Source: an uncultured Aliarcobacter sp.
GTDB lineage: Bacteria; Campylobacterota; Campylobacteria; Campylobacterales; Arcobacteraceae
Assembly: GCA_963664305.2 (NCBI GenBank)
Contig: CAXXLV010000001.1
Location: 800,001-864,000 of the forward strand
Direction: 5' to 3'
DNA: 64,000 nt
The notes beneath the pieces were generated by a model that was not told the origin of the DNA, searched no databases, and saw only the letters and a program-made list of their open reading frames with translations. This document shows, in pieces, positions 2,790-64,000 of this stretch (the first letter of the stretch is position 1; each line of letters begins with the position of its first letter). Made by a program: the position numbers and the translations under genes.

Positions 2790-3394
2790 TTGTTTTCCTC
2801 TTTTCCATCAATGTCTACTACATGATGTTTGTGCTCATTTAATTCATTTTTTAAATTTTCAATTTCACCTTTTAGATTATATTCATCCATATCATGTAAA
2901 CCTTTGTATATATTTAGGTTTTTTATAAAAAATCCAATTGATGTAATAATCAATAAGAAAAATGATAAAGGAATTAATGATTTTACAATCCATCTAAAAG
3001 GAAGCCCACCTGGATCTCCACTTTGTTCATGAGATGTGAAAGATTCAACAACAAATGGAATAGATTCAACTGCAATTAGTAAAGCTACAGGAATTATGAA
3101 TAAAACAACTCCAACCATATTAATTTTTGCTTTTTTCTTATTTGTTAATCTATCATATATTAAATCAACTCTTACGTGACCATCTTCTTTTAATGTATAA
3201 GATATACCTAAAAGAATAATTACTGAAAATAAGTGCCATTCCATCTCTTGCATAGCGATACTTCCTGTATGAAAAAAGTATCTCATAATTACGTCATAAG
3301 TTACATTTAAAATCATAAGTACCATTACAAAAGCAGTAATATAGCCTATAATATCAGCAAATTTATCAAAACCTCGTTCTAGTTTTAACAGCAT
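2786..3394 (-). CDS. dctQ: TRAP transporter small permease
   Basis: 4 TM segments; GHVRVD motif; overlaps the dctM start. Confidence 0.9.
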   Translation of the reverse strand: MLLKLERGFDKFADIIGYITAFVMVLMILNVTYDVIMRYFFHTGSIAMQEMEWHLFSVIILLGISYTLKEDGHVRVDLIYDRLTNKKKAKINMVGVVLFIIPVALLIAVESIPFVVESFTSHEQSGDPGGLPFRWIVKSLIPLSFFLLIITSIGFFIKNLNIYKGLHDMDEYNLKGEIENLKNELNEHKHHVVDIDGKEENK

Positions 3395-3485
3395 AATAAT
3401 CCTTTTGAAATTTCTTGATAAGTTAAATAAATATAAACGGTTAATACATTTATTAAACTTATTATATCTATTTTAAGTTAAGTAG

Positions 3486-3507
3486 CTAACTCTCAGAAGA
3501 GAGTTAG
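3486..3507 (-). terminator. Hairpin after dctP (partial terminator or mRNA stabiliser)
   Basis: CTAACTCTC-AGAA-GAGAGTTAG perfect 9-bp stem. Confidence 0.6.
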
Positions 3508-3513
3508 TTAATT

Positions 3514-4578
3514 TTATAAATTGTCTTTTAAGTATAAATAGTCAGACATTTCTGTCCATTTTCTAGATTTTTTTTGATAAGCTTCTTGAGATTCTAAAGT
3601 CTCTTTTAATAATGGAGATTGAGCTTTTAATTCTGTTAATAACTCATCATTAGCTTTTTTCATAGCATCCATAACTGGTTTTGGGAAAGTTTTAACTTTG
3701 ATATTTGGGAACTCAGTTAACATAGTTGACCAAGCTTCACTACTCATGTGGTAGTTTTGAATATACATATCATAAGCACTTACTCTCATTGCTGTTAATA
3801 AAATTTGTTGGTAATCTTTTGGTAATTTATCAAAAGATTTTTGATTTACTAAGAATTGTAATTCTGTTGCTGGTTCATGCCAACCTGTATAGTAATATGG
3901 TGCAATTTTGTGGAATCCCATAGAAATATCCATACCTGGGCCAACCCATTCTAACGCATCAATAGTACCTCTTTCAAGTGAAGTATAAAGTTCACCTGGA
4001 GCAATATTAGTAACTGTTAATCCAAGTTTTGCCATAACTTCTCCAGCAAATCCTGGAATTCTCATTTTTAGACCTTTTAAGTCATCAAGAGAGTTGATTT
4101 CTTTTCTAAACCAACCACCCATTTGGTTTCCAGTATTTCCACCTGGATAAGATAAAACACCATGTTTAGCATATGCTTTTTGCATTAATTCCATTCCACC
4201 ACCATAGTAGAACCATGCATATTGCTCAGGTGCAGTTAATCCAAAAGGCATTGTTGTGAATGGTAATGTTTCAATATCTTTACCTTTCCAGTAATAAGAA
4301 GCAGAGTGACCCATATCATATTGACCACCTTTAACCATATCTAAAATACCTAATGGTGATTTATGTTTATTAGCAGCGTCAATTCTAATTTGGAATTTTC
4401 CATCTGACATCTCTTCAACAAGTTTTGCCATATTTGTTGGTGAATCAATAAATGGACTTAAAGTTGAACCCCAAGTTGTTGCTAGTGTCCATTTTACTTT
4501 TTCTGCAGCATTTGCAACAGTAGCTAAACCTGCAATAAGTGCAGTTGTAACTAGTAATTTCGTAGTTTTTTGTAACAT
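3514..4578 (-). CDS. dctP: TRAP substrate-binding protein (monocarboxylate/lactate type)
   Basis: Signal peptide; QMGGWFRKEI, GLKMRIPG and LERGTIDALEWVGP motifs. Confidence 0.92.
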   Translation of the reverse strand: MLQKTTKLLVTTALIAGLATVANAAEKVKWTLATTWGSTLSPFIDSPTNMAKLVEEMSDGKFQIRIDAANKHKSPLGILDMVKGGQYDMGHSASYYWKGKDIETLPFTTMPFGLTAPEQYAWFYYGGGMELMQKAYAKHGVLSYPGGNTGNQMGGWFRKEINSLDDLKGLKMRIPGFAGEVMAKLGLTVTNIAPGELYTSLERGTIDALEWVGPGMDISMGFHKIAPYYYTGWHEPATELQFLVNQKSFDKLPKDYQQILLTAMRVSAYDMYIQNYHMSSEAWSTMLTEFPNIKVKTFPKPVMDAMKKANDELLTELKAQSPLLKETLESQEAYQKKSRKWTEMSDYLYLKDNL

Positions 4579-4607
4579 TTCATTTCTCCTTAGATTTGTT
4601 ATTTTAA

Positions 4608-4641
4608 ATTCTAACTAGTAGACATGAAAATTATATGATAT
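4608..4641 (-). promoter_or_regulatory. Putative response-regulator direct repeat plus -10 box of dctP
   Basis: Minus strand reads ATATCATATAATTTTCAT (TCAT with 11-bp period), 10 nt, then TAGAAT; same layout upstream of lutA. Confidence 0.55.
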
Positions 4642-4663
4642 TTTTCCAATAAATATGTAATAT

Positions 4664-5308
4664 TTATGTAATTTTAAATATATATCCTGTGTCTACAACA
4701 GTTTGAATATAATCTTTTTCAAGTATTTTTCTAACCCGTCTTATTAGACTTCTAATAGATTCTAAAGAGGCAAAATTACCTTCCCAAACGTAGTTTTCTA
4801 TACTTTCATAAGAGATAACTTGATTTTTTTTAGTTAAAAAAAGATTTATAAGAAGTTTCTCTTTTTTTGTTAATCTTACTTCCACATTATTGATAACAAC
4901 CAAAGCTGATTTAAAATCAAAATAAGAGTTTTCATCAAAATAGATTTTTTCATTTTGTATCTTGCAAAGCTTTTCTATTTTTATCTCTAATTCATCAATA
5001 AAAAAAGGTTTCTTTAAAAAATCATTACAACCAAAGTCATATGCTTCTTTTATCACATCTAGTTCAACACTAGCACTAATGATTATAACTGGAAGTGAAC
5101 TATAGAATTCTCTAATTTTTTTTAATATTTTTATTCCATCAATATTTGGGACATTGATATCTAAAATAAAACATGAAAATCCCTCTGTTATTTTCTCATA
5201 AGCTTCTTTGCCATCAATAAATGACAAAACATTGTAACCTTTGAGTTTTAATCTTTTTGAAATAGCTTCGTTTAATTTTTTATTATCTTCTAAAAGTAAA
5301 ATCTTCAT
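4664..5308 (-). CDS. OmpR-family response regulator
   Basis: Receiver motifs (LLED, ILDINVP, KPF) plus C-terminal winged helix. Confidence 0.92.
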   Translation of the reverse strand: MKILLLEDNKKLNEAISKRLKLKGYNVLSFIDGKEAYEKITEGFSCFILDINVPNIDGIKILKKIREFYSSLPVIIISASVELDVIKEAYDFGCNDFLKKPFFIDELEIKIEKLCKIQNEKIYFDENSYFDFKSALVVINNVEVRLTKKEKLLINLFLTKKNQVISYESIENYVWEGNFASLESIRSLIRRVRKILEKDYIQTVVDTGYIFKIT

Positions 5309-5310
5309 TT

Positions 5311-7503
5311 TTATACCTTTTTATGAGGAAGTTTTATAGTAAAGATAACATTGTCATCTTCATTTCTTACTTTTATACTTCCTCTCATTTTATCTTCAAT
5401 AATAACTTTTGCCATATAAAGCCCAAAACCAGTTCCATTTTCTTTAGTTGTGAAATATGGATCAAAAATAGAATTTATTATTTTGTCGTCGATTTTTCCA
5501 CCATTATCAATAATTTCTATTGTATTATAAGTTGAACATCTTTCTATATTTATATCTATTTTAGCTTGTTTTTCATCATCTTTAAAATTCTCAACTATTT
5601 TGTTTTTTGCGTTGTTAATCAAATTTAATAAAACTTGTTTGAATTCATTTTCGTAACCATATATTAGTAGTTCTTCATTTTTATTTTTATAATTAAAACT
5701 CATTTTTATATTAGAATAGAATATCTGTTTTCCAATAATTTCATTTATTTCATTTAAAGCTTTTGAGATAGAAAAAAGTTTTTTTGTAGTTGAAGGTTTT
5801 AAGAAATTTCTAAAATCACTTAAAGTTTTTGACATATATTTTATTTGTACCATTGAATCATTTACAAAATCTTTTACATCAACATCTTTTAATTCATTTA
5901 AAAGATAAGTAGTTTGAATATCTTGAACAAGCGCAGACAACTCAACTAATGGTTCATTCCATTGATGAGCAATAGCAGCAATCATATCACCCATTTCTGC
6001 TAATTTACTTTGTTGGATTAAAAACTGTTTTTGTTGAACACGTTCAGTAATATCATCCATAATACAAACTATCCCACCAACAGTTCCATCAATATTTTTA
6101 TAAACAGCTTTATTTAAAATGATATGTTTCATCTCTTTAGAAGGTGTATGAAATGTAAATTCAGATGTACTTGTAGAAAATGTTTGAAGTAATTCTTGAT
6201 CTATTTGTGTATTTGCAGAAGCAATTTTATAAGGGAAAAAGTCAAAAGCAGTTTTTCCAATAATTTCATCTCTTGTGCTATCAACTAAATTTTCAAAACT
6301 AGTATTACATCCTAAAAATTTTCCATCAATATTTTTATAATAAATAGGATTTGGAATAGTATCTAGTAGTACTTTATCAAATTCAAGTCTGTTTGAAAGT
6401 GCTAATTCAACTTTTTCTCTTCTTTGAATATTTGCCCTTAAAATTAGAACAATAATACTTAGAGTCAAAATTATTAGAATTGAAATTACAAAAAATTTAT
6501 AATGTTCTTTATATACGGAACTTGGTTCATTTATGATAATTGGGTCATTTACATAATCTGATATATTTATATTAAATTTTTTTAATTCATTATAATCAAA
6601 CATGTAAAGATTTGGTGATTTTTCTAAGATAGGAATATCTTTTGGATTTTTACCATTTAAAATCTCTAAAGCCATTTTAGAAACAGCTTCTCCTTGAGCA
6701 ACTGCTGAAGTTAAAAGACCTCCAACTATCCCATCATTTAGATAAAAATCCCAAAGACCATAAATTGGAACTTGACTAACTTTTTTCACTTCTTGAAAAC
6801 TTTGTTTATATGTAAAATATTTTCCAGTTGTATCTTTAAAAAGTAAAACGAATAAAATTACACTATTCTCTTTATCTAAATTTGAAACTTTATTTTTTAA
6901 ACTATTGATTTCTAAATTATCTGTATATTCAATGTTAAATTTCTTTTGATATTTTTCAATAATAGGATTTAAATCTCTTTTTACAGCATTTCCTGTTGCC
7001 GAACGGTCATTTATAATTAATAAATTTTTTAGATTTGGATGTAGTTTTGAAATTAATTCAATATTCTTTTCAACATCAACTTCTTCTGCAACTCCCGTCA
7101 TAATATCTTTCATATCATTTTCATGAAGTAATACTTTATCAAAATTGTTTATTCCACAAAAAACAACTGGTACATCTTTGAAAAGATATTCGTGATATTT
7201 AATTATAAAATCAAACGCATTATTATCACTTATTATAATTAAATCAAATTTTCTATTTTCAAATTGTTGTTTATAAAGTTTTACTAGATTTGATAGATAC
7301 TCAGGTGTGTCAATTCTTTTGGTATCCATATAAATTGTAGTTAGTTCTACATCTTTTAGTGGTTTGAAATTTTTTTCAATTGTTTTTGATATATCATCGG
7401 TCCAAATATAACCTTTATGATATGAGTGAATTAAAAGTACCTCTTTACTTGAAGCAAAGAGGTAATTAAAAAAAAGTAAGCTAAATAGTAAAATATATTT
7501 CAT
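5311..7503 (-). CDS. Sensor histidine kinase with periplasmic ABC-substrate-binding-like domain and PAS domain
   Basis: Signal peptide, large periplasmic domain, TM, PAS (IPNPIYYKN), H-box IAHQW, HATPase NLINNA/DNGG/GTGFGL. Confidence 0.9.
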   Translation of the reverse strand: MKYILLFSLLFFNYLFASSKEVLLIHSYHKGYIWTDDISKTIEKNFKPLKDVELTTIYMDTKRIDTPEYLSNLVKLYKQQFENRKFDLIIISDNNAFDFIIKYHEYLFKDVPVVFCGINNFDKVLLHENDMKDIMTGVAEEVDVEKNIELISKLHPNLKNLLIINDRSATGNAVKRDLNPIIEKYQKKFNIEYTDNLEINSLKNKVSNLDKENSVILFVLLFKDTTGKYFTYKQSFQEVKKVSQVPIYGLWDFYLNDGIVGGLLTSAVAQGEAVSKMALEILNGKNPKDIPILEKSPNLYMFDYNELKKFNINISDYVNDPIIINEPSSVYKEHYKFFVISILIILTLSIIVLILRANIQRREKVELALSNRLEFDKVLLDTIPNPIYYKNIDGKFLGCNTSFENLVDSTRDEIIGKTAFDFFPYKIASANTQIDQELLQTFSTSTSEFTFHTPSKEMKHIILNKAVYKNIDGTVGGIVCIMDDITERVQQKQFLIQQSKLAEMGDMIAAIAHQWNEPLVELSALVQDIQTTYLLNELKDVDVKDFVNDSMVQIKYMSKTLSDFRNFLKPSTTKKLFSISKALNEINEIIGKQIFYSNIKMSFNYKNKNEELLIYGYENEFKQVLLNLINNAKNKIVENFKDDEKQAKIDINIERCSTYNTIEIIDNGGKIDDKIINSIFDPYFTTKENGTGFGLYMAKVIIEDKMRGSIKVRNEDDNVIFTIKLPHKKV

Positions 7504-7528
7504 TAAAATCCCCTATCTAGCAATTATA

Positions 7529-8116
7529 TCAAGATTTTACGAAAATCACATACCCTGATTTTGGACCATGAGCTCCAATAACTAATGATTGTTCAATATC
7601 TGCAGTTTTAGATGGACCTGAAATAAATACACCATAACCTTGGTTTTCAAAAGAGATTTTTTCATATGCTTCATGCATATTGTTTAAAATATCATTTTCA
7701 TCTATAACAATTACGATATTTTGTGCAATAAAATATAAAGCTCTATGTCTATTTGATGGATTTTTCATCCAAATTGCACCATTTTCTGCAACTGCAAAAT
7801 TTCCTTTTACAACAGCTAAATCAATATCTTTTAAATCATGAGCATCTTCAAAGCTATTTGCATAAAAGTTTCCTAAATTACAAAAATCTACATTTGAAGC
7901 TATTTGTTTTTCTTTTGGATATAAATCTTTTATAGTTTGGTCTAAATCTTTTTTATCAATAATTAAAGCTTTCCCACCAACACTTTCAAGCATTGTAGAA
8001 AATGTTTGAAATTTATCTTCAAATTTTATTCCAAAATTATCATATGAAGGAAGTTTTACATCTTTTACGACATTGTTTTCTCTAATTGCATTTAAAATCT
8101 TTTCTTTACTAGTCAT
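7529..8116 (-). CDS. lutC: Lactate utilisation protein C (LUD domain)
   Basis: ISGPSKTADIEQSLVIGAHGP. Confidence 0.9.
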   Translation of the reverse strand: MTSKEKILNAIRENNVVKDVKLPSYDNFGIKFEDKFQTFSTMLESVGGKALIIDKKDLDQTIKDLYPKEKQIASNVDFCNLGNFYANSFEDAHDLKDIDLAVVKGNFAVAENGAIWMKNPSNRHRALYFIAQNIVIVIDENDILNNMHEAYEKISFENQGYGVFISGPSKTADIEQSLVIGAHGPKSGYVIFVKS

Positions 8117-9488
8117 CTAATTCTCCTTCTTTAAACATCTCTTTAAAGCTTTTTTCTGGGAATTTTGGTAAATCTCTTTGTTTTCCCCATACATTTGCTT
8201 TATTGTAAAGTATGAAATTTGGTAGTTTTGGAACTATTACTCTTGCCATTTTTCCAGCAAAATCAAATAAAGCTGGTTTACTCATAAGCCAAGTGGTTAC
8301 TTTCATAGCCATTTTCTTTTTGCTATCAATTAAATCAGCATTTCCTAAATCTTGTCTTAGACTATAAAGTTGTGAATCTAAATCAATTTTAACTGGACAT
8401 ACATTTGAACATGAACCACATAATGTACATGCAAACGGTAAAGAGTTATGAAGTTCTGGATGTCTTGCACTTCCTAAAATAGAACCAATTGGTCCAGGAA
8501 TTACATACTCATACGAGTGACCACCACTTCTTCTATAAACAGGACATGTATTCATACATGCACCACATCTAATACAATTTAATGCTTTTTTGTTTTTTGT
8601 AGATGATAAAAACTGAGTTCTTTTATTATCAACAATAATTATGTGCATTTTTCCACCTTCAACACTTCCATGGAAATGTGAAGTATAAGATGTAATTGGT
8701 TGTCCAGTTGCACTTCTTGCTAATAATCTTGTAAATACAGATAAATCTTCAAGTCTTGGAATAATTTTTTCAATACCCATTGAAGCAATATGAAGTTTAG
8801 GAACACTTGCTCCCATATCTGCATTTCCTTCATTTGTACAAACTACAACACCACCAGTATTTGCAATTGCAAAATTAACTCCTGTTAATCCAGCATCAGC
8901 AGTTAAAAAATCTTCTCTAAGTGCAGCACGTGCAGCTCTTGTTAAATAAGTTGGGTCATAGTTTCCTTTTTCAGTTCCAAGTTTTTCATGGAATGTATCA
9001 GAAACATCTGATTTTTTTAAGTGAATTGCTGGAAGAACGATATGTGAAGGTGGTTCATTTCTAAGTTGTACAATTCTTTCACCTAAATCTGTATCAATTA
9101 CTTCGATGCCCCTACTTTCTAAGTAAGGATTCAAGTGACACTCTTCTGTTAGCATAGATTTAGATTTAACGATTTTTTTTACGTTATTTTCACTTAAAAT
9201 TTTGTGAACGATTTCATTGTGCTCTTGAGCATCACATGCGAAGTGAACAGTAATTCCTTTTGCTGTCGCATTTTTTTCAAACTCTAATAGATATTTATCT
9301 AAATTAGCCATTGTATGAGTTTTTATTTGATTTGCATATTCTCTTAATTGTTCCCATTCAGGAATAGATTTACTTGCTCTATCTCTTTTTTCTCTTACAA
9401 ACCATAATGCTTGGTCATGCCAATGCATTCTTTCATCATTAGCTACAAACTTTGCTGCATTATCTGAGTGGTTGTGATTTGTACTCAT
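8109..9488 (-). CDS. lutB: Lactate utilisation protein B (Fe-S)
   Basis: VKSKSM, TDLGE, NEGN, CIRCGACMNTCP, CTLCGSCSNVCP. Confidence 0.93.
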   Translation of the reverse strand: MSTNHNHSDNAAKFVANDERMHWHDQALWFVREKRDRASKSIPEWEQLREYANQIKTHTMANLDKYLLEFEKNATAKGITVHFACDAQEHNEIVHKILSENNVKKIVKSKSMLTEECHLNPYLESRGIEVIDTDLGERIVQLRNEPPSHIVLPAIHLKKSDVSDTFHEKLGTEKGNYDPTYLTRAARAALREDFLTADAGLTGVNFAIANTGGVVVCTNEGNADMGASVPKLHIASMGIEKIIPRLEDLSVFTRLLARSATGQPITSYTSHFHGSVEGGKMHIIIVDNKRTQFLSSTKNKKALNCIRCGACMNTCPVYRRSGGHSYEYVIPGPIGSILGSARHPELHNSLPFACTLCGSCSNVCPVKIDLDSQLYSLRQDLGNADLIDSKKKMAMKVTTWLMSKPALFDFAGKMARVIVPKLPNFILYNKANVWGKQRDLPKFPEKSFKEMFKEGELDD

Positions 9489-54739: not shown

Positions 54740-54816
54740 GCGTCTGTAGTTCAACTGGATAGAATGGCCGGTTTCGACCCGGTAGGTTGTGGGTTCGAAT
54801 CCTACCAGGCGTGCCA
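54740..54816 (+). tRNA. tRNA-Arg (anticodon TCG)
   Basis: Full cloverleaf: acceptor GCGTCTG/CAGGCGT, anticodon stem GCCGG/CCGGT with loop TTTCGAC, T-loop TTCGAAT, CCA end. Confidence 0.95.
54798..54816 (+). repeat. att core at the tRNA end
   Basis: AATCCTACCAGGCGTGCCA. Confidence 0.93.
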
Positions 54817-54848: not shown

Positions 54849-56012
54849 TCAAATACTCTCATTTTTTTTAGGTGTCAATTCGGTGTCTAATGGTGTCAGA
54901 ATTTTTTTAAAACAATTTCCGAAATTCATATTCTGAATTGGTATATATTGTGAATATTTTTCAAGAGTTATTTTTACATTTTCGTGTCCAGCAATTTTAC
55001 TCACATAGTTTATATCTTCCCCATTACTAATTAGAGTTGATATAAATGTTCCTCTTGTTTGATGTAGATTTCTATATTCTACATTTGCTTTTTCTATTAT
55101 TGGTATCCAAATTTGTTCTCTTATTTTTCCAGCTGAATGAAAATGTTTATTTGTTCTTGTTGTTAAAAATACAAATGAATTATGATTCCCCGTTATTATT
55201 TTTTGATTTTCTAAAAAAGGAATTAAAGGTTCTATTATTGGAATAATTCTCTTGCTTTTAGTCGTTTTCAAAATATCTTTTATTTGCCCGTTTACAATTT
55301 GTCTCTTTACTGTGATAGTTCTATTTTCAAAATCTATACAATCCCAAGTTAGACCTATACATTCTCCTATCCTTAATCCAGTCATAAAAAGAACGGCTAT
55401 TAAGTTTTTATCTTGATTGGTAGCCACTGATAAAATTTGAATTATTTCTTCCGTTTTAAAAGGTGTTAGTTCTATTCTTTTAACTTTTGATTGTTCAGTT
55501 TGTTTTATTGTTTTTACCTTTTTAATAGGATTTATTTTAATAATTTCATTTTCAATAGCATCTTCAAACATTGTATATAACAATCCCCTAATTTTTAAAA
55601 TATAGCTTTTAGATAATTTATACTCTTTTTGAAGATTGTTTTGCCATAAAGTAATTTCAGAAGGTTTTACTTTATCTAATGTTTTATGCCCAAATGTTTC
55701 CTTTATATATTTATCATAATTCTTTTGGTGTCCATATATAGTGCTTTGACATCTACCACCTTTGTGTAATTCAAAAGAAAAATTCATATATTCTTCAACA
55801 GTTGGAATTTTTTTGTTTTGGTTTAATTCTCCATTCATTAGTTTGTATTGTAATATAGGAAGAATTTCATTTTCTGCTTTTTTATAATTAGCTTTTGTAT
55901 TTTCCATTTCAAGAGGTTTTCTGAATCTTTTTCCATTAATTGTATAGTTTACCCATAACCATTCTTTTGTTTGCCCTTTTTTATTTTTTACTTGTTTTAT
56001 ATAGATATTCAT
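54849..56012 (-). CDS. int: Tyrosine recombinase (phage-type integrase)
   Basis: N-terminal arm-binding-like domain; TGLRIGE, LKT, HQTR, GH and catalytic Tyr in KYSQY. Confidence 0.95.
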   Translation of the reverse strand: MNIYIKQVKNKKGQTKEWLWVNYTINGKRFRKPLEMENTKANYKKAENEILPILQYKLMNGELNQNKKIPTVEEYMNFSFELHKGGRCQSTIYGHQKNYDKYIKETFGHKTLDKVKPSEITLWQNNLQKEYKLSKSYILKIRGLLYTMFEDAIENEIIKINPIKKVKTIKQTEQSKVKRIELTPFKTEEIIQILSVATNQDKNLIAVLFMTGLRIGECIGLTWDCIDFENRTITVKRQIVNGQIKDILKTTKSKRIIPIIEPLIPFLENQKIITGNHNSFVFLTTRTNKHFHSAGKIREQIWIPIIEKANVEYRNLHQTRGTFISTLISNGEDINYVSKIAGHENVKITLEKYSQYIPIQNMNFGNCFKKILTPLDTELTPKKNESI

Positions 56013-56021
56013 TTTTTCTCC

Positions 56022-56342
56022 TTATGCTACATTTTCTAATATTCTATTTGCTAATAATTCATAATTTTTATTAGTTGTTTTATCTGAACACATTATCCAT
56101 TTATCAATTTCTGTTTTATCAAATATATTTTTCCTATGTTTTTTGTAATAGTGTAAGTCAATTACAAATTCTTCATCCTTAATCATATTTTTTATGCTCT
56201 CTTTGCTATATCCAATATATTCACTTAGTTCCTCTGTTGTTAACCATCGTTTTTCAATTTTATTCATTTCTCTATCTCTTAACAAAACTAATATGTTATA
56301 AATTTCTTGTATTTTTTCTAAATTTTCTAATGCTATATTCAT
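56022..56342 (-). CDS. Excisionase-like winged-helix protein
   Basis: WLTTEELSEYIGYSKESIKNM...IFDKTEIDKW; directly upstream of int. Confidence 0.8.
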   Translation of the reverse strand: MNIALENLEKIQEIYNILVLLRDREMNKIEKRWLTTEELSEYIGYSKESIKNMIKDEEFVIDLHYYKKHRKNIFDKTEIDKWIMCSDKTTNKNYELLANRILENVA

Positions 56343-56367: not shown

Positions 56368-56530
56368 GTGTACAAAAATCTACACATTGCAAATAAAAAA
56401 TATATGTCAATAAAAGTGTAGAAAAATGTACATTGAAATTCTATAACGAATTTACTTAAGTGTACATTAAAGTACACAAAAAATAAATCTTTAAACATTA
56501 TTAATATAAAATGTGTACAAAAAAATACAC
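56368..56530. promoter_or_regulatory. Four 18-bp imperfect palindromes GTGTA-N8-TACAC (putative operators)
   Basis: Copies at 56368-56385, 56416-56433, 56460-56477 and 56513-56530. Confidence 0.75.
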
Positions 56531-56542
56531 AAAGTTTATAGA

Positions 56543-56947
56543 ATGATTAAAAAGAAAAAAGAAAGAAAAAAAGTTTTATTGAATGATTTTGATAGTGACT
56601 TATTAAATAAAAAAGAAATTAATGAACTATTTGGAATTTTAAAAGAATTAAAAGAAAAATTAAAATTTTACATAGAAAAAAATGAATTAGATAATAAAAT
56701 AAAAAATATTGATAATTTATATTCAATTACAATACAAGAAACTGAAAGAAATATTAGACTACTAGCAACCATTTTAGAATTAAAAGATAATGAAGAAGTT
56801 GAAAAAAAGATTTCATTGGTTACATTAGCATTAAGCGATAAAAAAACTGATAAATATTCAGAAATTATAAATCTAAAAAGAGCATTTTATTCTTATAGAC
56901 ATTTATTAATCACATTAGAATTTTTAAATCCAAATTTAAATGAATAA
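56543..56947 (+). CDS. Hypothetical helical protein, divergent from xis-int
   Basis: Open frame; the track's GTG (56513) lies inside operator 4, so the in-frame ATG 56543 is preferred. Confidence 0.6.
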   Translation: MIKKKKERKKVLLNDFDSDLLNKKEINELFGILKELKEKLKFYIEKNELDNKIKNIDNLYSITIQETERNIRLLATILELKDNEEVEKKISLVTLALSDKKTDKYSEIINLKRAFYSYRHLLITLEFLNPNLNE

Positions 56948-57022: not shown

Positions 57023-58312
57023 CTATATATTTTTTGAGTAAATTTTAAGAATTGTATTTAAAAAATTGTCTGAAATAAAAGGTATTTGAAAAAGATTTTT
57101 ATCACTTGTAAAACCATTTTTAATAATTGCTCTACCTTTTGTAAAATCTTGAATTTCTTTCGTAGAGATTCTTTCTCGAATATTATCTTTTAAATCTATA
57201 ATATTTATATTATTATCGTTTGCAGTTTTTAATAATACTCTTGATTGAATATTATTTGTAATTGCAGTTGGTAGAATGGTACTATCAATTTTTTGACCAA
57301 ATAAAAATAATAAGATTCCTGAGGCTCTTCCTTGCATAGCTATCAAAGAAAGCTTATTAAATATAGATTCACGAATTTTTTTATCAGGATAAACACTAAC
57401 AGCACCTATCTCGTCAAATATTAGTAATGTATATGTATCTATTTTTCTAATATTATTTTCTAACATATATTTTTGAGTAGATTCCAATTCTTTTAAAACA
57501 CTATCTAGTAATATATCTAGTTTTTCAATACTTGAAACAAACTCTACATTATCAATTTTTTCATATTGTTTTAATTCAACTCCACCTTTGAGGTCAATCA
57601 TATACATTTTATTAAATCTATTAGAATTATGTAAAAAGTTTATGTTAAAAAGTTGCATTAAATTTGATTTTCCACTCCCTGATTCACCTACAATTAGGTG
57701 GTGGTCTAAAGAATTTATATCTCGATAATAAAAGCCTTTTTCATATATTCCTAGGAATAAGTAATCTTTTTTAAATAAAGAAAAATCAATAGAATAAAAA
57801 TTGGGTAACTTATAAAATGATAGAACTACACTTTTATTTTTTTTTGCTTTTATACTTACTTCATAATCATTTGAAATAATCCCCAAATAATGCAGGATTT
57901 TTTCTTTATTTTTTCTATAAGTTTCTAAATCAATTGAAACTAAATTTGCATATTCAAGCTCAAACCTTTTTAAATCCTTTGTAAAAATTTCTTCCAGAAC
58001 ATTTTTTGATTTAATATTTTTTTTAGATATAAAGAAATCCAAAAATAGTGTTCTTTTATTTCGTATCTCAATTAAAGTGTTATGTGAAAACAAGCTATGA
58101 AAGTTAAGAGAATAAGGCATTAAAATATATTTCCAGTTCCACATATAATATATAGAAACCAATAAAGAAGATATAGTAATCATGATGTATAAAGAATCTA
58201 ATTCCTCTTTAAAATCTTTTGTTGATAAACTTATTGCTGTAACATACATTATAAAACAAAAGAAGCCCATTATTAATAGGCTTCGGAAATAACTTATGAT
58301 TCCGTATATCAT
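57023..58312 (-). CDS. Membrane-anchored FtsK/SpoIIIE-family ATPase (TcpA/ConQ-like)
   Basis: 2 N-terminal TM segments; HLIVGESGSGKS, IDLKGG, LLIFDE, QGRASGI, LFGQK, GRAI. Confidence 0.88.
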   Translation of the reverse strand: MIYGIISYFRSLLIMGFFCFIMYVTAISLSTKDFKEELDSLYIMITISSLLVSIYYMWNWKYILMPYSLNFHSLFSHNTLIEIRNKRTLFLDFFISKKNIKSKNVLEEIFTKDLKRFELEYANLVSIDLETYRKNKEKILHYLGIISNDYEVSIKAKKNKSVVLSFYKLPNFYSIDFSLFKKDYLFLGIYEKGFYYRDINSLDHHLIVGESGSGKSNLMQLFNINFLHNSNRFNKMYMIDLKGGVELKQYEKIDNVEFVSSIEKLDILLDSVLKELESTQKYMLENNIRKIDTYTLLIFDEIGAVSVYPDKKIRESIFNKLSLIAMQGRASGILLFLFGQKIDSTILPTAITNNIQSRVLLKTANDNNINIIDLKDNIRERISTKEIQDFTKGRAIIKNGFTSDKNLFQIPFISDNFLNTILKIYSKNI

Positions 58313-58572
58313 TTTAACATAGGCTCACTTTGTGTAAAAAAAAGTTTGTTTTCAAAACTTGAAACTTTAACTGGGATTTTTACTGTTAAACCTTCTTTAA
58401 TAGATAAAGTATCATTTTTATCAGTTAATTTTATTTGTTGAATTTCAACACCACCGTTATCATTTTTATTAAGGAATTGTACATATATAACTTCTTCTTC
58501 CTTATACATTTTCTTTGCCATTGCAAAAACTTGACCTGTTATAATTATTTTTGAATTCATTTTTTTCTCCAA
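58309..58572 (-). CDS. Small beta-rich protein, putative ssDNA-binding/OB fold
   Basis: 87 aa with an alternating beta-strand pattern (IIITGQV, VIYVQF, VKIPVKV); between rep and the ATPase; the fold is inferred. Confidence 0.6.
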   Translation of the reverse strand: MEKKMNSKIIITGQVFAMAKKMYKEEEVIYVQFLNKNDNGGVEIQQIKLTDKNDTLSIKEGLTVKIPVKVSSFENKLFFTQSEPMLK

Positions 58573-60015: not shown

Positions 60016-62481
60016 ATGATAAAAGCATTTTTATCTCATTCTTCATCGGATAAAGACAAATTTGTTAGAATAGTTGCCGATAAGCTAAAAAACAAACATG
60101 GAATTCACTATGATGAATATACTTTTGAAATAGGAAATAAAACAATTGATGAAATTTTAGAAGGTTTAGATAAAACTGATTTATTTGTTTTTTTTATTTC
60201 AGAAAATTCATTAGAATCAGAGTGGGTAAAAAAAGAAGTTTTAGTTGCAACAAATAATTTAGGAAATAGGACAAAACAGTTTTATCCAATTATTATTGAT
60301 AAAAACATTACATATAAAGATGAAAGAATTCCTGAGTGGTTAGTAAGTGAATATAATATTAAATTTGTAAGTAAGCCAACAGTTGTAGCTAAACGAATTG
60401 AACAAAAATTAAGAGAAATATCTCTTAAAAAACATCCAAAATTAATGAAAAAAAATAATTTATGTATAGGTAGAAATAAAATTCTTGAAAATTTTGAGGA
60501 AAGATTAGATAATTTTGAGAAAGCTCAACCTAAATGTATAATTGCAACGGGACTAGAATCAATTGGAAGAAGAACATTTTTAAAATATGCTCTTGTTAAA
60601 ACGGATATTATCAATCAATACTACACCCCAAATTCTATTTATCTTGATACAAATGATAGTATAGAAGATTTTATTTTAAAAATAAATGATTTTGGATTTT
60701 TAGATATTGATTCAGATTTATCAGATTTATTATCTAAAAATCAAGACTATAAAATAAATTTAGCAATTAATATTTTAAAAGAAATACAATCAAACAATGA
60801 AATTATTTTGATATTAGATAATGGTTGTATTGTAAATTATGAAAGAAAATTTTCTAATTGGTTTAGAAAAATAATTGAGTCTAGTGAATTAGATAATAAA
60901 GTTCTTATTTGTACTGCTTCAAAATATAAAGTTCATTATACTGAAATTAATAATGATGCCTTTTATTCGGAGCATGTTGATGATTTAACTCCATCTGAAA
61001 GAAAAAGATTATTTAAAAGATTATTAGAAATATATGATATTGAAATGGTAGTAGATGATTTTAACTATATAAGTGATACTTTCAAAGGTCTTCCTGAACA
61101 AATTTTATATTGTGTAGATTATATTGATAGAACTAATATAGAAACTGTGAAAAAAAATATTCATGAAATTAGAGAGTTTAATGATGAAAAAGCTTCAGCG
61201 CTTATTAAACATTATCAAGAAGATGAGTACATATTGTCTTTAATAAGATTAATTGCTCAATTTGAGATAATAAGCATAGAGTTTTTAAATGAGATAATAT
61301 CTGATGAAACAATTAATGAAATATTAGAAATATTAGTTACAGAAAATATTTGTGAATATTTTGGTTATGATGGACAATTTATCAGAGTAAATGATTCCAT
61401 TAGAGATTATATAATTAGGAATAGATTAAAAATAAAAGAAGAATATTTAACTAAAATAAAAACACATGTTTCAGCATTTATTCGTTCTGATGAGAAAATT
61501 GAAAAGGATTCTAGTGATTATTTGTTTTCTTTAAAACAAGCATTATTAGAAGGTGAAGAAATTGATGAAAATTTATTATTACCATCCCATTTTTTAAGAA
61601 CAATGAAAGATTTATATCATAATGGAAGTTTACAGAAAGTAATCGATTTAGCATATAAAGTTTTAGAGAAAGAAGAGTACATTGATTATTATTTAGCAAA
61701 TGATATAAAATACTATTTGTGTTTAGCTTTGGCAAAAAAAAGAGATAAAAGAGTTTTAGATGAAGTTCAAAGAATTAATGGTGATCAACATAATTTTGTT
61801 TTAGGATATTATTACAGATTAATAGGAGAATATACAAAAGCAATAGATAGATTGAAATCTATAGTTGATTCACAATATATAAAAGCAAGAGCAAAGCGAG
61901 AAATTGTACATTGTTATATTCAAACAGAAGGATATTCAAAAGCCCTTAGTTTTGCTAAAGATAATTATATAGAGAATAGAAATTATATATATCATGTTCA
62001 ATTATATTTTTATTGTCTAATTTATAGTGATAAAAGTTTTGAAAATAAAGAAGAACTTAGAAGAATTACTATTGAGTTAAAGAGATTGAGTGTGGAATCT
62101 AATATGGATATGGGAGACAGAGCAGAGGCTCTTTATCTAGCAAAGTGTGAGAATAAAGAAGAAGAATCATTAAGATTAATAAATGATGCAATTGCAAAAT
62201 ATCCAGATAGTTATTACCCGTTATTAACTAAATTTGATATTGCACTTAAATTTTATAATATAAATGAAATGGAAGATTGTATTTTAAAACTTGAAAAATT
62301 TAATGGTAAAACTTTATCTAAAAAAACATATACTAAACAAAAAGCATATTTTATTGCATTAAAAGAGAAAAATGCAACGAAAGCTAAACAGTTAATTATT
62401 GATGATTTAAATAAATATCCTCAGGAAGCAAAAGATTTGATTTTAGAAAAAATTGATTATTTAGCAAATAAATTAAAATAA
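60016..62481 (+). CDS. TIR domain-STAND-like NTPase-TPR protein, candidate anti-phage defence
   Basis: TIR: AFLSHSSSDK...SEWVKKE; then IGRN, variant P-loop GLESIGRRT, ILILD; helical-repeat C-terminus. Confidence 0.82.
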   Translation: MIKAFLSHSSSDKDKFVRIVADKLKNKHGIHYDEYTFEIGNKTIDEILEGLDKTDLFVFFISENSLESEWVKKEVLVATNNLGNRTKQFYPIIIDKNITYKDERIPEWLVSEYNIKFVSKPTVVAKRIEQKLREISLKKHPKLMKKNNLCIGRNKILENFEERLDNFEKAQPKCIIATGLESIGRRTFLKYALVKTDIINQYYTPNSIYLDTNDSIEDFILKINDFGFLDIDSDLSDLLSKNQDYKINLAINILKEIQSNNEIILILDNGCIVNYERKFSNWFRKIIESSELDNKVLICTASKYKVHYTEINNDAFYSEHVDDLTPSERKRLFKRLLEIYDIEMVVDDFNYISDTFKGLPEQILYCVDYIDRTNIETVKKNIHEIREFNDEKASALIKHYQEDEYILSLIRLIAQFEIISIEFLNEIISDETINEILEILVTENICEYFGYDGQFIRVNDSIRDYIIRNRLKIKEEYLTKIKTHVSAFIRSDEKIEKDSSDYLFSLKQALLEGEEIDENLLLPSHFLRTMKDLYHNGSLQKVIDLAYKVLEKEEYIDYYLANDIKYYLCLALAKKRDKRVLDEVQRINGDQHNFVLGYYYRLIGEYTKAIDRLKSIVDSQYIKARAKREIVHCYIQTEGYSKALSFAKDNYIENRNYIYHVQLYFYCLIYSDKSFENKEELRRITIELKRLSVESNMDMGDRAEALYLAKCENKEEESLRLINDAIAKYPDSYYPLLTKFDIALKFYNINEMEDCILKLEKFNGKTLSKKTYTKQKAYFIALKEKNATKAKQLIIDDLNKYPQEAKDLILEKIDYLANKLK

Positions 62482-62609: not shown

Positions 62610-62628
62610 AATCCTACCAGGCGTGCCA
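62610..62628 (+). repeat. Distal att core (copy of the tRNA 3' end)
   Basis: AATCCTACCAGGCGTGCCA, identical to 54798-54816. Confidence 0.93.
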
Positions 62629-63070: not shown

Positions 63071-63619
63071 TTGCCATATCTTGTTTCATCAATAATTGCA
63101 ATTGTTTCAGCTTTAATAATTTTACTTACTAGATATGAAGCTGATGACAGTACAATAACAAGTGAACTTGATAGAATGAAATCTATGTTTATAACAATGG
63201 ATGGATTTGTAAATACTTATATTCAATCTGGTGGAACTTTATCAAGTATAAATTTTGAGGAATTGGATAAAGCGGGTATTTTATTATCAAATATGGAAAT
63301 AACTCCAGTAGCAGATACAAATTCTAGTACTGGTGAAAATAAAACTACAACAAAATTTCCAAATAGTGAAGTGATTTGGCAAATTATACCAAATATAAAT
63401 GACACTAGTTCATATAAACTTTTAGTAGATATGTCAAAAGCTAGTGCATTGATGAGTAAGGCTATTTTCTCAGAAAGTTTCTCAGGTCGAGAATTTTGTG
63501 AAAAGATGCTTTTTGGTACATTTGATCAAAATGGAAGTGCATATGTTGAGGGAACAAAAGATTTTGGAACAACAGGCACAACAAAAGACGGAATTTTTGT
63601 TTGTATAGTTTTTAAGTGA
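63071..63619 (+). CDS. Hypothetical protein with N-terminal hydrophobic helix (pilin-like)
   Basis: TTG start after AAGGA; TM helix, amphipathic helix, two C-terminal Cys. Confidence 0.7.
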   Translation: MPYLVSSIIAIVSALIILLTRYEADDSTITSELDRMKSMFITMDGFVNTYIQSGGTLSSINFEELDKAGILLSNMEITPVADTNSSTGENKTTTKFPNSEVIWQIIPNINDTSSYKLLVDMSKASALMSKAIFSESFSGREFCEKMLFGTFDQNGSAYVEGTKDFGTTGTTKDGIFVCIVFK

Positions 63620-63700: not shown

Positions 63701-64000
63701 ATGCCACAGTTGATAGCTATGATTATCGTAGTAGTTGGAGCAATGATTTATATGTTCCAAACATTTGGAGGAACTGGAGATAAAATCGAAGGTATTGCAC
63801 AAAAAACAAGTATTATTACTGAAATTAATAATATAAAAGATGGGGTTAAAATCGCAGCTAAATCAGAGCAAATTGCAAGTACAGCATCAGGTGATAAAGT
63901 TAACACTTTAGAGGGATTAGCAGCTCTTTCATATTTTGCAGAACAAATTAATACACAATTAACTGATACAAATAATAATGCAAATAATGCAAATATATAT
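63701..64000 (+). CDS. Hypothetical pilin-like protein, truncated by the window end
   Basis: Not in the ORF track; MPQLIAMIIVVVGAMIYMFQTFGGTGDKIEGIAQKTSIITEINNIKDG..., open to the edge; purine-rich RBS. Confidence 0.75.
   Translation, partial: MPQLIAMIIVVVGAMIYMFQTFGGTGDKIEGIAQKTSIITEINNIKDGVKIAAKSEQIASTASGDKVNTLEGLAALSYFAEQINTQLTDTNNNANNANIY

Follow-up and report, generated by a model that had tools for sequence, protein, structure and literature searches.

An open reading frame (ORF) at positions 60016..62481 on the forward strand of a 64,000-nucleotide stretch from an uncultured Aliarcobacter sp. (contig CAXXLV010000001.1 of assembly GCA_963664305.2; the whole stretch is hereafter called the window) encodes an 821-aa protein in which a first-pass annotation, made from the sequence alone, had recognised TIR, STAND and tetratricopeptide repeat (TPR)-like domains together with a deviant P-loop. 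Does this gene represent a novel kind of anti-phage receptor, perhaps from an uncharacterised STAND subfamily as that annotation had proposed, or is it a system that is already known? The evidence presented below makes it quite probable that the gene belongs, in intact form, to the TIR-NLR family of single-gene anti-phage systems, which is already known, that its integrative element of 7.8 kb carries no other accessory gene and that its role is one of abortive infection. The reading frame itself is genuine, and the motifs WVKKE, GLESIGRRT and ILILD translate exactly as annotated. An AAGGA motif resembling a ribosome-binding site lies ~11 nt 5' of the ATG, and the gene, present as a single copy in its 2.78-Mb genome, has a GC content of 0.22-0.24 in surroundings that are equally AT-rich.

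The identity of the gene emerges most clearly from full-length comparisons. In a PADLOC scan with a threshold of E<=1, which reported five families for the 821-aa protein, the 'TIR-NLR' profile PDLC03015 matched residues 1-818 with positions 1-822 of its 824 (E 2.4e-232, 772 bits). A sequence search of the PDB retrieved chain 9m0n_A, an 824-aa protein entitled 'Tetratricopeptide repeat protein', which aligns over the same extent (1-818 vs 1-822; E 4e-215); entry 9umd carries the same sequence. The window protein belongs to the TIR-NLR family. According to Rousset et al. 2022 (PMC9122126), TIR-NLR is a validated system that consists of one gene and comes from a P4-like satellite, where it occupies the psu-int hotspot; its protein has a TIR domain, a STAND NTPase domain in the centre and TPRs at the C-terminal end. 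The tested protein is that of Klebsiella pneumoniae SB5442 (plasmid pFR90, one gene; Table S2A of that paper), for which HHpred matches to TPR_MalT (528-809) and AAA_35 (148-470) are given in Table S3; the gene cloned alone protected E. coli from several phages. Over approximately the first 400 residues, the stretch compared, 9m0n_A is identical to the sequence in Table S2A, and for this reason the deposited structure is likely to be that of the phage-tested Klebsiella protein. Judged by its sequence, the window gene is a full-length orthologue of this validated protein. In surveys the system goes under the name Rst_TIR-NLR, and the table of a review (PMC10952713) credits 'TIR-NLR' to Rousset 2022.

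These matches leave no room for an uncharacterised subfamily, because the family already has a name, a hidden Markov model in a defence database, a tested member and deposited structures. The first-pass annotation had itself suggested a PADLOC search and held that a strong hit to a characterised system would remove the novelty, which is what the search returned. Its broader description of a single-gene anti-phage sensor-effector survives as regards both layout and family, by homology to the validated protein. Its remark that the trigger is unknown also stands: searching the literature for 9m0n, for 9umd and for how bacterial TIR-NLR proteins work or are triggered brought up Rousset 2022 and survey papers only, none of them a study of the trigger, and the single match for '9umd' was an unrelated article from 1991.

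Relatives of the protein are numerous in databases and sparse among close relatives of the host. Of the 7999 candidates scored in a word-index search, 600 reached E<=0.001. Those listed, 120 in number, are 39-100% identical to the query, and nearly all of them cover at least 94% of it (a single 701-aa protein covers 81%); they include proteins from Arcobacter porcinus (70%), Halarcobacter bivalviorum (66%), Klebsiella pneumoniae (45%), Acinetobacter, Vibrio, Pseudomonas and a cyanobacterium. At E<=1e-20, a homologue was detected in one of 150 further genomes from the same family and in none of 21 from the same genus, a patchy distribution. In the genome that does carry one (G071; 66% identity), a GPA-like Rep is encoded ~7 kb away within the same 20-kb stretch. 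The interval between the two (positions 2822-8586 of locus L003, G071:C1:1414000-1433900) holds genes whose products are a 386-aa AAA ATPase, a 727-aa subtilase of family S8 and a 637-aa DUF676 protein that is esterase-like and has a beta-propeller match; the locus may group several defence systems into an island borne by a related element. A plasmid collection contained four records with homologues, and PLSDB typing classed none of the four as mobilizable. Two small plasmids, Zymomonas pZMOB03 and one from Enterococcus, encode TIR-STAND-TPR proteins of distant homology (21% and 20% identity, respectively); one of these adjoins genes for a replication initiator and ParA, and both keep a Gx4GR loop.

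To assess conservation, 40 of the 120 listed homologues were picked to span the identity range (39-100%), and from a 40-sequence alignment an AlphaFold2 model of the protein was built (mean predicted local distance difference test score (pLDDT) 87.4, predicted template modelling score (pTM) 0.85). Foldseek retrieved 147 matches to this model at E<=0.001 among PDB entries to 2026-04-08, headed by the archaeal STAND-TPR protein 6mfv (6e-09), Avs3 (8dgc), SAMD9, RPP1 (7dfv, 7crc), CED-4, Apaf-1 and Avs5. The Foldseek candidates were then superposed with VIA-align 2. Apaf-1 (3sfz) covers aa 114-532 of the model (Z 18.6, root-mean-square deviation (rmsd) 4.0, 339 aligned residues), MalT (8bob) aa 143-547 (Z 18.5) and the NB-ARC of NRC1 (8bv0) aa 144-473 (Z 17.4), while TPR chains, among them APC3 (~18) and Rap, superpose on aa 474-821 with Z 15-18.6. 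All three domain calls of the first-pass annotation hold at the level of folds, and the monomer prediction it had recommended places a STAND fold in the central region. The STAND module spans aa 140-472 (60433..61431, +) and consists of a GR motif (G152-R153), a nucleotide-binding domain (NBD), a helical domain with G358-x-P360 and a winged helix with R457, N459 and D460. It is followed by an all-helical, TPR-like solenoid (aa 475-818; 61438..62469, +), which is presumed to be the sensor. The idea of a hypervariable TPR sensor was considered and rejected: mean identity to the window protein is 47% in the TPR region, as compared with 46% in the NBD, 41% in the helical domain and 57% in the TIR domain, and higher variability is confined to the last ~60 residues.

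The effector, a TIR domain at the N terminus (aa 1-135; 60016..60420, +), is the part of the protein recognised by Pfam, which reports TIR_2 alone (aa 5-97, E 5.6e-15), and the NCBIfam match is likewise limited to it. In bacterial TIR NADases, the catalytic residue is the Glu found in a WxxxE motif. In the window protein this motif reads WVKKE (60223-60237), and its Glu, E74 (codon 60235-60237), is kept in all 40 aligned homologues. The TIR domain of AbTir (7uxu) superposes on aa 1-133 of the model with Z 12.8 and rmsd 2.5 (126 aligned residues, 23% identity). PDB matches of the domain obtained with phmmer comprise 7uxr, 7uwg and 8g83, and E74 aligns with a Glu of chain 7uxr, consistent with the catalytic assignment. 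The sole segment of the model with pLDDT below 50 is aa 34-41, in the region of the BB loop, which is expected to become ordered on assembly and hence to be modelled with low confidence. Mutating the active site of the TIR domain abolishes defence in 12 TIR systems of E. coli, as reported in PMC11350192, which fits the reading of E74 as catalytic.

Would the TIR domain destroy NAD+, or would it rather act like ThsB of Thoeris and produce a nucleotide signal for a separate effector encoded elsewhere, in which case killing would not come about through NAD+ depletion? The domain does match models of ThsB, if weakly (PADLOC PDLC00436, 3e-07; Pfam ThsB_TIR, 0.019), and bacterial TIRs can act either way, according to the passage of Rousset 2022 (PMC9122126) on this point. 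The K. pneumoniae homologue, however, works in E. coli as a single cloned gene, and in the window the TIR-NLR gene is the sole gene between rep and the right attachment site of the element described below; the only other ORF of at least 60 aa in that interval is nested and antisense. A comparison of the two contexts at hand, the window and G071, shows that the neighbours of the TIR-NLR gene differ, so that no partner appears to be conserved. We therefore regard a signalling role of this kind as improbable and retain the single-gene effector as the preferred reading.

A number of observations weigh against the assignment to a functional TIR-NLR system and have to be set beside those above. None of the STAND, NACHT, NB-ARC, AAA_16 or TPR families of Pfam was found in the 821-aa protein at E<=0.1, the missing STAND match being the one that counts here. 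Identity to the tested K. pneumoniae protein is ~45%, a value judged from its close Klebsiella relative P0080, and the anti-phage role of the window copy is predicted solely through homology to the validated protein. In Rousset 2022 (PMC9122126), too, the NADase activity is put forward as a hypothesis, and the TPRs, in the wording of that section, 'may sense' infection. A tblastn search of a phage collection yielded no TIR-NLR homologue. Upstream of the gene, the number of promoter-like sites (31) is close to that in shuffled sequences (26.8 +/- 4.8), and a scan for terminator-like sites at the gene returned 0. At the presumed nucleotide-binding site the deviations are more substantial: the canonical Walker A sequence GxxxxGK[ST] is not present, R185 and R186 standing in for the Lys and the Mg-coordinating Ser/Thr, and the second acid of Walker B is absent both from the window protein, which has N269, and from 14 of the 40 homologues. 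The combination of an Arg-Arg loop and a variable second Walker B acid makes canonical switching driven by ATP hydrolysis doubtful.

How this P-loop is to be understood depends on its placement and its conservation. In the model, the variant Walker A GLESIGRRT (G179-x4-G184-R185-R186-T187; 60550..60576, +) lies between a strand (174-178) and a helix (185-195). Read with the canonical Gx4GK[ST] spacing, R185 occupies the place of the Lys and R186 that of the Ser/Thr. A register shifted by one residue, in which R186 would correspond to the Lys and T187 to the Thr, may be compatible with the sequence as well. The first-pass annotation was right that the loop is a variant; the variant is a hallmark of the whole family, the validated protein included, and no peculiarity of the window gene. 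With R185 kept in 40/40 homologues and R186 in 38/40, GxxxxGRR[TS] is the family consensus; position 187 is T in 33, S in 5, R in 1 and A in 1, and the validated Klebsiella protein itself carries GLIGVGRRS. G179, G184 and R185 are also kept in three distant plasmid homologues, from Phocaeicola (Bacteroidota, 26% identity), Zymomonas (Alphaproteobacteria, 21%) and Enterococcus (Bacillota, 20%). The Arg-Arg loop is a question about the whole family and not about the window gene, and no discussion of it was found in the texts searched.

Other positions are strictly conserved as well, so that none of the motifs named in the first-pass annotation is a fortuitous match. The 'IGR' motif corresponds to C150-I151-G152-R153, and the residues invariant in 40/40 homologues include, besides E74 and R185, G152, R153, G184, D268, G358, P360, R457 and D460, with G179 following closely (39/40). 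The Walker B strand ILILD(268), continued by N269-G270 (60805..60825, +), varies at its second acidic position, where 20 homologues have D, 11 N, 6 E, 2 S and 1 A (acidic in 26/40). One might accordingly suppose that the family and its defence role are as proposed, and that the STAND module nevertheless does not hydrolyse ATP: the Arg-Arg loop would bind a nucleotide without Mg2+ or hydrolysis, accommodate another phosphate ligand or belong to a nucleotide-free scaffold, assembly depending on the binding of ligand and on nothing else. The near-universal Arg pair, its persistence in homologues of only 20-26% identity, the variability at position 269 and the GVGRRS loop of the active K. pneumoniae protein all speak for such a module. 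On the other side, the strict conservation of the pocket glycines, of D268, of the GxP and of the winged-helix ND motif suggests that the pocket is still in use, Arg is capable of contacting phosphates and the shifted register may be the true one. We consider a non-hydrolysing STAND possible, if on the doubtful side. The bolder proposition, that the TIR-NLR clade (at least four phyla) consists of STAND receptors that assemble without NTP hydrolysis or that read another phosphate-bearing ligand, possibly NAD-derived and acting in a feed-forward manner, strikes us as unlikely. If true, it would mean that the Arg-Arg clade is regulated in a way for which NLR-type immune receptors offer no described precedent, and the window copy, with its N269, would be a natural hydrolysis-null example. 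The deposited 9m0n and 9umd structures may already settle the matter of the Arg-Arg loop.

The same N269, standing in place of the usual Asp after D268, could be taken as a sign that the gene is an inactive relic. It is, however, shared by 11/40 homologues, including all nine closest relatives of the window protein; moreover, the frame is of full length and devoid of stops, every residue invariant in the family is kept and the model is confident. Decay of the gene is, in our opinion, extremely unlikely, and an intact TIR-NLR gene remains the preferred interpretation.

The description of the gene as the cargo of a mobile element proved correct. Perfect 19-bp repeats bracket int, xis, an ftsK-like gene, rep and the TIR-NLR gene, the last being the only accessory gene of the 7.8-kb element. 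The integration target is a tRNA-Arg(TCG) gene (54740..54816, +; detected with ARAGORN), the last 19 nt of which constitute attL (54798-54816), and the perfect copy of this tRNA 3' end that forms attR (62610..62628, +) lies 128 nt past the TIR-NLR stop codon. From left to right, the element encodes a tyrosine integrase (54849..56012, -; Pfam Phage_integrase 1.6e-21, phrog_1 3.8e-59), an excisionase-like HTH_17 protein (56022..56342, -; Pfam HTH_17 4.8e-07, phrog_66 excisionase 3.7e-06), a 144-aa ORF with neither a Pfam match above cut-off nor a PHROG match (56513..56947, +), an FtsK/SpoIIIE-like ATPase with an N-terminal membrane segment, likely to be a DNA-transfer protein (57023..58312, -; Pfam FtsK_SpoIIIE 2.9e-13, phrog_1358 1.4e-37), an 87-aa ORF (58309..58572, -) and, divergent from the TIR-NLR gene, a rolling-circle-type replication initiator resembling phage GPA (58576..59754, -; Pfam Phage_GPA 9.7e-13, phrog_91 nicking at origin 1.7e-12). 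In the intergenic stretch that separates the 144-aa ORF from the excisionase-like gene, a 19-nt dyad-symmetric motif (GTGTA...TACAC) occurs twice, at 56368-56386 and 56513-56531, 145 nt apart; the pair may represent an operator or an origin site of the element.

Genomes of the same genus offer a view of the site before integration. Homologues of the right flank are present in 33 of 40 such genomes. The tRNA scan took in seven of the nine flank loci returned, and in three of these seven (G161, G130 and G163) the tRNA-Arg(TCG) directly adjoins the flank homologue with no insert, which makes these sites empty ones, the other four having no tRNA within the stretch examined. In a three-way DNA alignment of an empty site, attL and attR, the tRNA side aligned well and attR was misaligned, so that the junction is not placed to the base. 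Just past attR, two ORFs (63071-63619 and 63701-64000) each begin with a short hydrophobic segment, within a flank that is conserved beside tRNA-Arg in same-genus genomes; the former has no Pfam match at E<=0.1.

The genetic setting raises the possibility that the gene mainly serves the element itself, by excluding competing mobile elements or through post-segregational killing, and that guarding the host against lytic phages is not its main task. As the sole cargo of an element that appears able to replicate itself and to be transferred, the TIR-NLR gene would suit such a purpose, and in the E. coli experiments reported in Rousset 2022 (PMC9122126) the tested TIR-NLR system lowered the titres of P2 and P4 (P420), from which it follows that the system acts on temperate elements too. 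An antitoxin-like partner is, however, not present, and a benefit to the element is compatible with protection of the host, the two roles not being mutually exclusive. Service mainly to the element has, in our estimate, little chance of being the right explanation, and we continue to favour a host-protecting, abortive-infection role.

Elements of related organisation recur in the bacterial family. Relatives of the Rep were found in 27 of 150 same-family genomes; seven Rep regions were taken, of which five were scanned with Pfam (81 of 123 ORFs; L037 and L038 being left out). A core composed of rep, a small ORF of 84-103 aa and an FtsK-like gene recurs across these elements, the small ORF, which corresponds in place to the 87-aa ORF of the window, being found in L034, L035, L036, L037, L039 and L040. 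On the upstream side of rep, where the window element has its TIR-NLR gene, accessory genes of other kinds could be identified in three of the five scanned elements: in L035, a BsuBI/PstI-type endonuclease and a C5 methylase, which make up a type II restriction-modification pair; in L034, which has AbiTii elsewhere in the element, a gene for a SocA/Panacea-domain protein; and in L040, genes for Sel1-repeat proteins. In L036 and L039, the ORFs neighbouring rep had no Pfam match. Since accessory genes with defence-type Pfam domains are carried by two of the five (L035 and L034), this family of Rep/FtsK elements may be a defence-gene shuttle within the bacterial family. In the genome of the window itself, two weaker Rep-like matches on the second contig (G000:C2:1573301-1573774, E 2.1e-14; G000:C2:1256250-1256738, 6.7e-11) suggest, at the level of sequence similarity, additional related elements there.

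A working scheme can be proposed for the protein. The C-terminal TPR solenoid would recognise a phage-derived ligand, and binding would release the STAND module (NBD, helical domain and winged helix) from autoinhibition, leading to oligomerisation. The N-terminal TIR domains would in this way be gathered into composite active sites around E74 and would consume NAD+, whereupon the infected cell would stop supporting phage growth, that is, undergo abortive infection. We infer the sensing role of the TPRs, the oligomerisation, the depletion of NAD+ and any need for a nucleotide at the Arg-Arg P-loop. The scheme agrees with the hypothesis outlined in Rousset 2022 (PMC9122126), as far as its section on TIR-NLR goes, of TPR-mediated sensing followed by ATP- or GTP-dependent oligomerisation and degradation of NAD+ by the TIR domain. 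Given that a PADLOC profile already matches the gene from end to end, its value as a discovery is small; the strictly conserved Arg-Arg P-loop is what raises a mechanistic question, and it does so at the level of the family.

The protein can finally be placed among known systems, beginning with the more remote ones. The plant TIR-NLR RPP1 shares the succession of a TIR and an NB-ARC-type STAND core (Foldseek 7dfv/7crc, E ~1e-06), and Apaf-1 and CED-4 are likewise matched by Foldseek, Apaf-1 with the Z of 18.6 given above; presumably, the ND motif of the TIR-NLR winged helix stands where MHD is found in plant NLR and Apaf-1 proteins. Identity to these eukaryotic proteins is, however, limited to 10-15%, their sensors are LRR or WD40 domains in place of TPRs, and the Arg-Arg P-loop belongs to the protein studied here. 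The stand-alone TIR proteins ThsB, AbTir and TcpB have the TIR fold with the catalytic Glu position and lack the STAND and TPR modules. ThsB of Thoeris, furthermore, works with ThsA as a partner, whereas nothing suggests a partner for the window TIR-NLR: the window ORFs include no second gene in the cargo slot, the genome as a whole not having been searched for ThsA. With the bNACHT and other NACHT NLR-related proteins the likeness exists at the level of the fold only, with no profile match.

The Avs (AVAST) proteins, Avs1-5 and later types, come closer in architecture, having an N-terminal effector, a STAND NTPase and a C-terminal TPR-like sensor, and Foldseek bears out the relationship at the fold level with Avs3 (8dgc) and Avs5 (9jap, 9nc9). 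Their expected logic, in which a phage protein is sensed, oligomerisation ensues and the effector is activated, is set out in parts of PMC12803255 and PMC11897194. The P-loop of Avs proteins is of the canonical Lys/Thr type (Thr291/Lys292 in SeAvs7), as opposed to the Arg-Arg of TIR-NLR; Avs3 has ~2000 aa as against 821 in the window protein, and no Avs profile was among the five PADLOC families. By far the closest counterpart is the TIR-NLR protein of Rousset et al. The two are of nearly the same size (821 vs 824 aa), collinear throughout and encoded by a single gene on a mobile element, and they have in common the TIR-STAND-TPR order, the Glu of WxxxE, the FVGR/IGR motif, the GxxxxGRR[ST] loop and a GLP motif. 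They differ in host, which is AT-rich and Arcobacter-like for the window and an enterobacterium for the tested system, in carrier, a tRNA-Arg element with Int, Xis, FtsK and Rep vs the psu-int hotspot of a P4-like satellite, and in the residue that follows the Walker B Asp, N269 in the window copy vs Asp in the tested protein. With the window gene, the range of this defence family, whose validation came from P4 satellites of enterobacteria, reaches an Arcobacter-like host and a small element of very different make-up.

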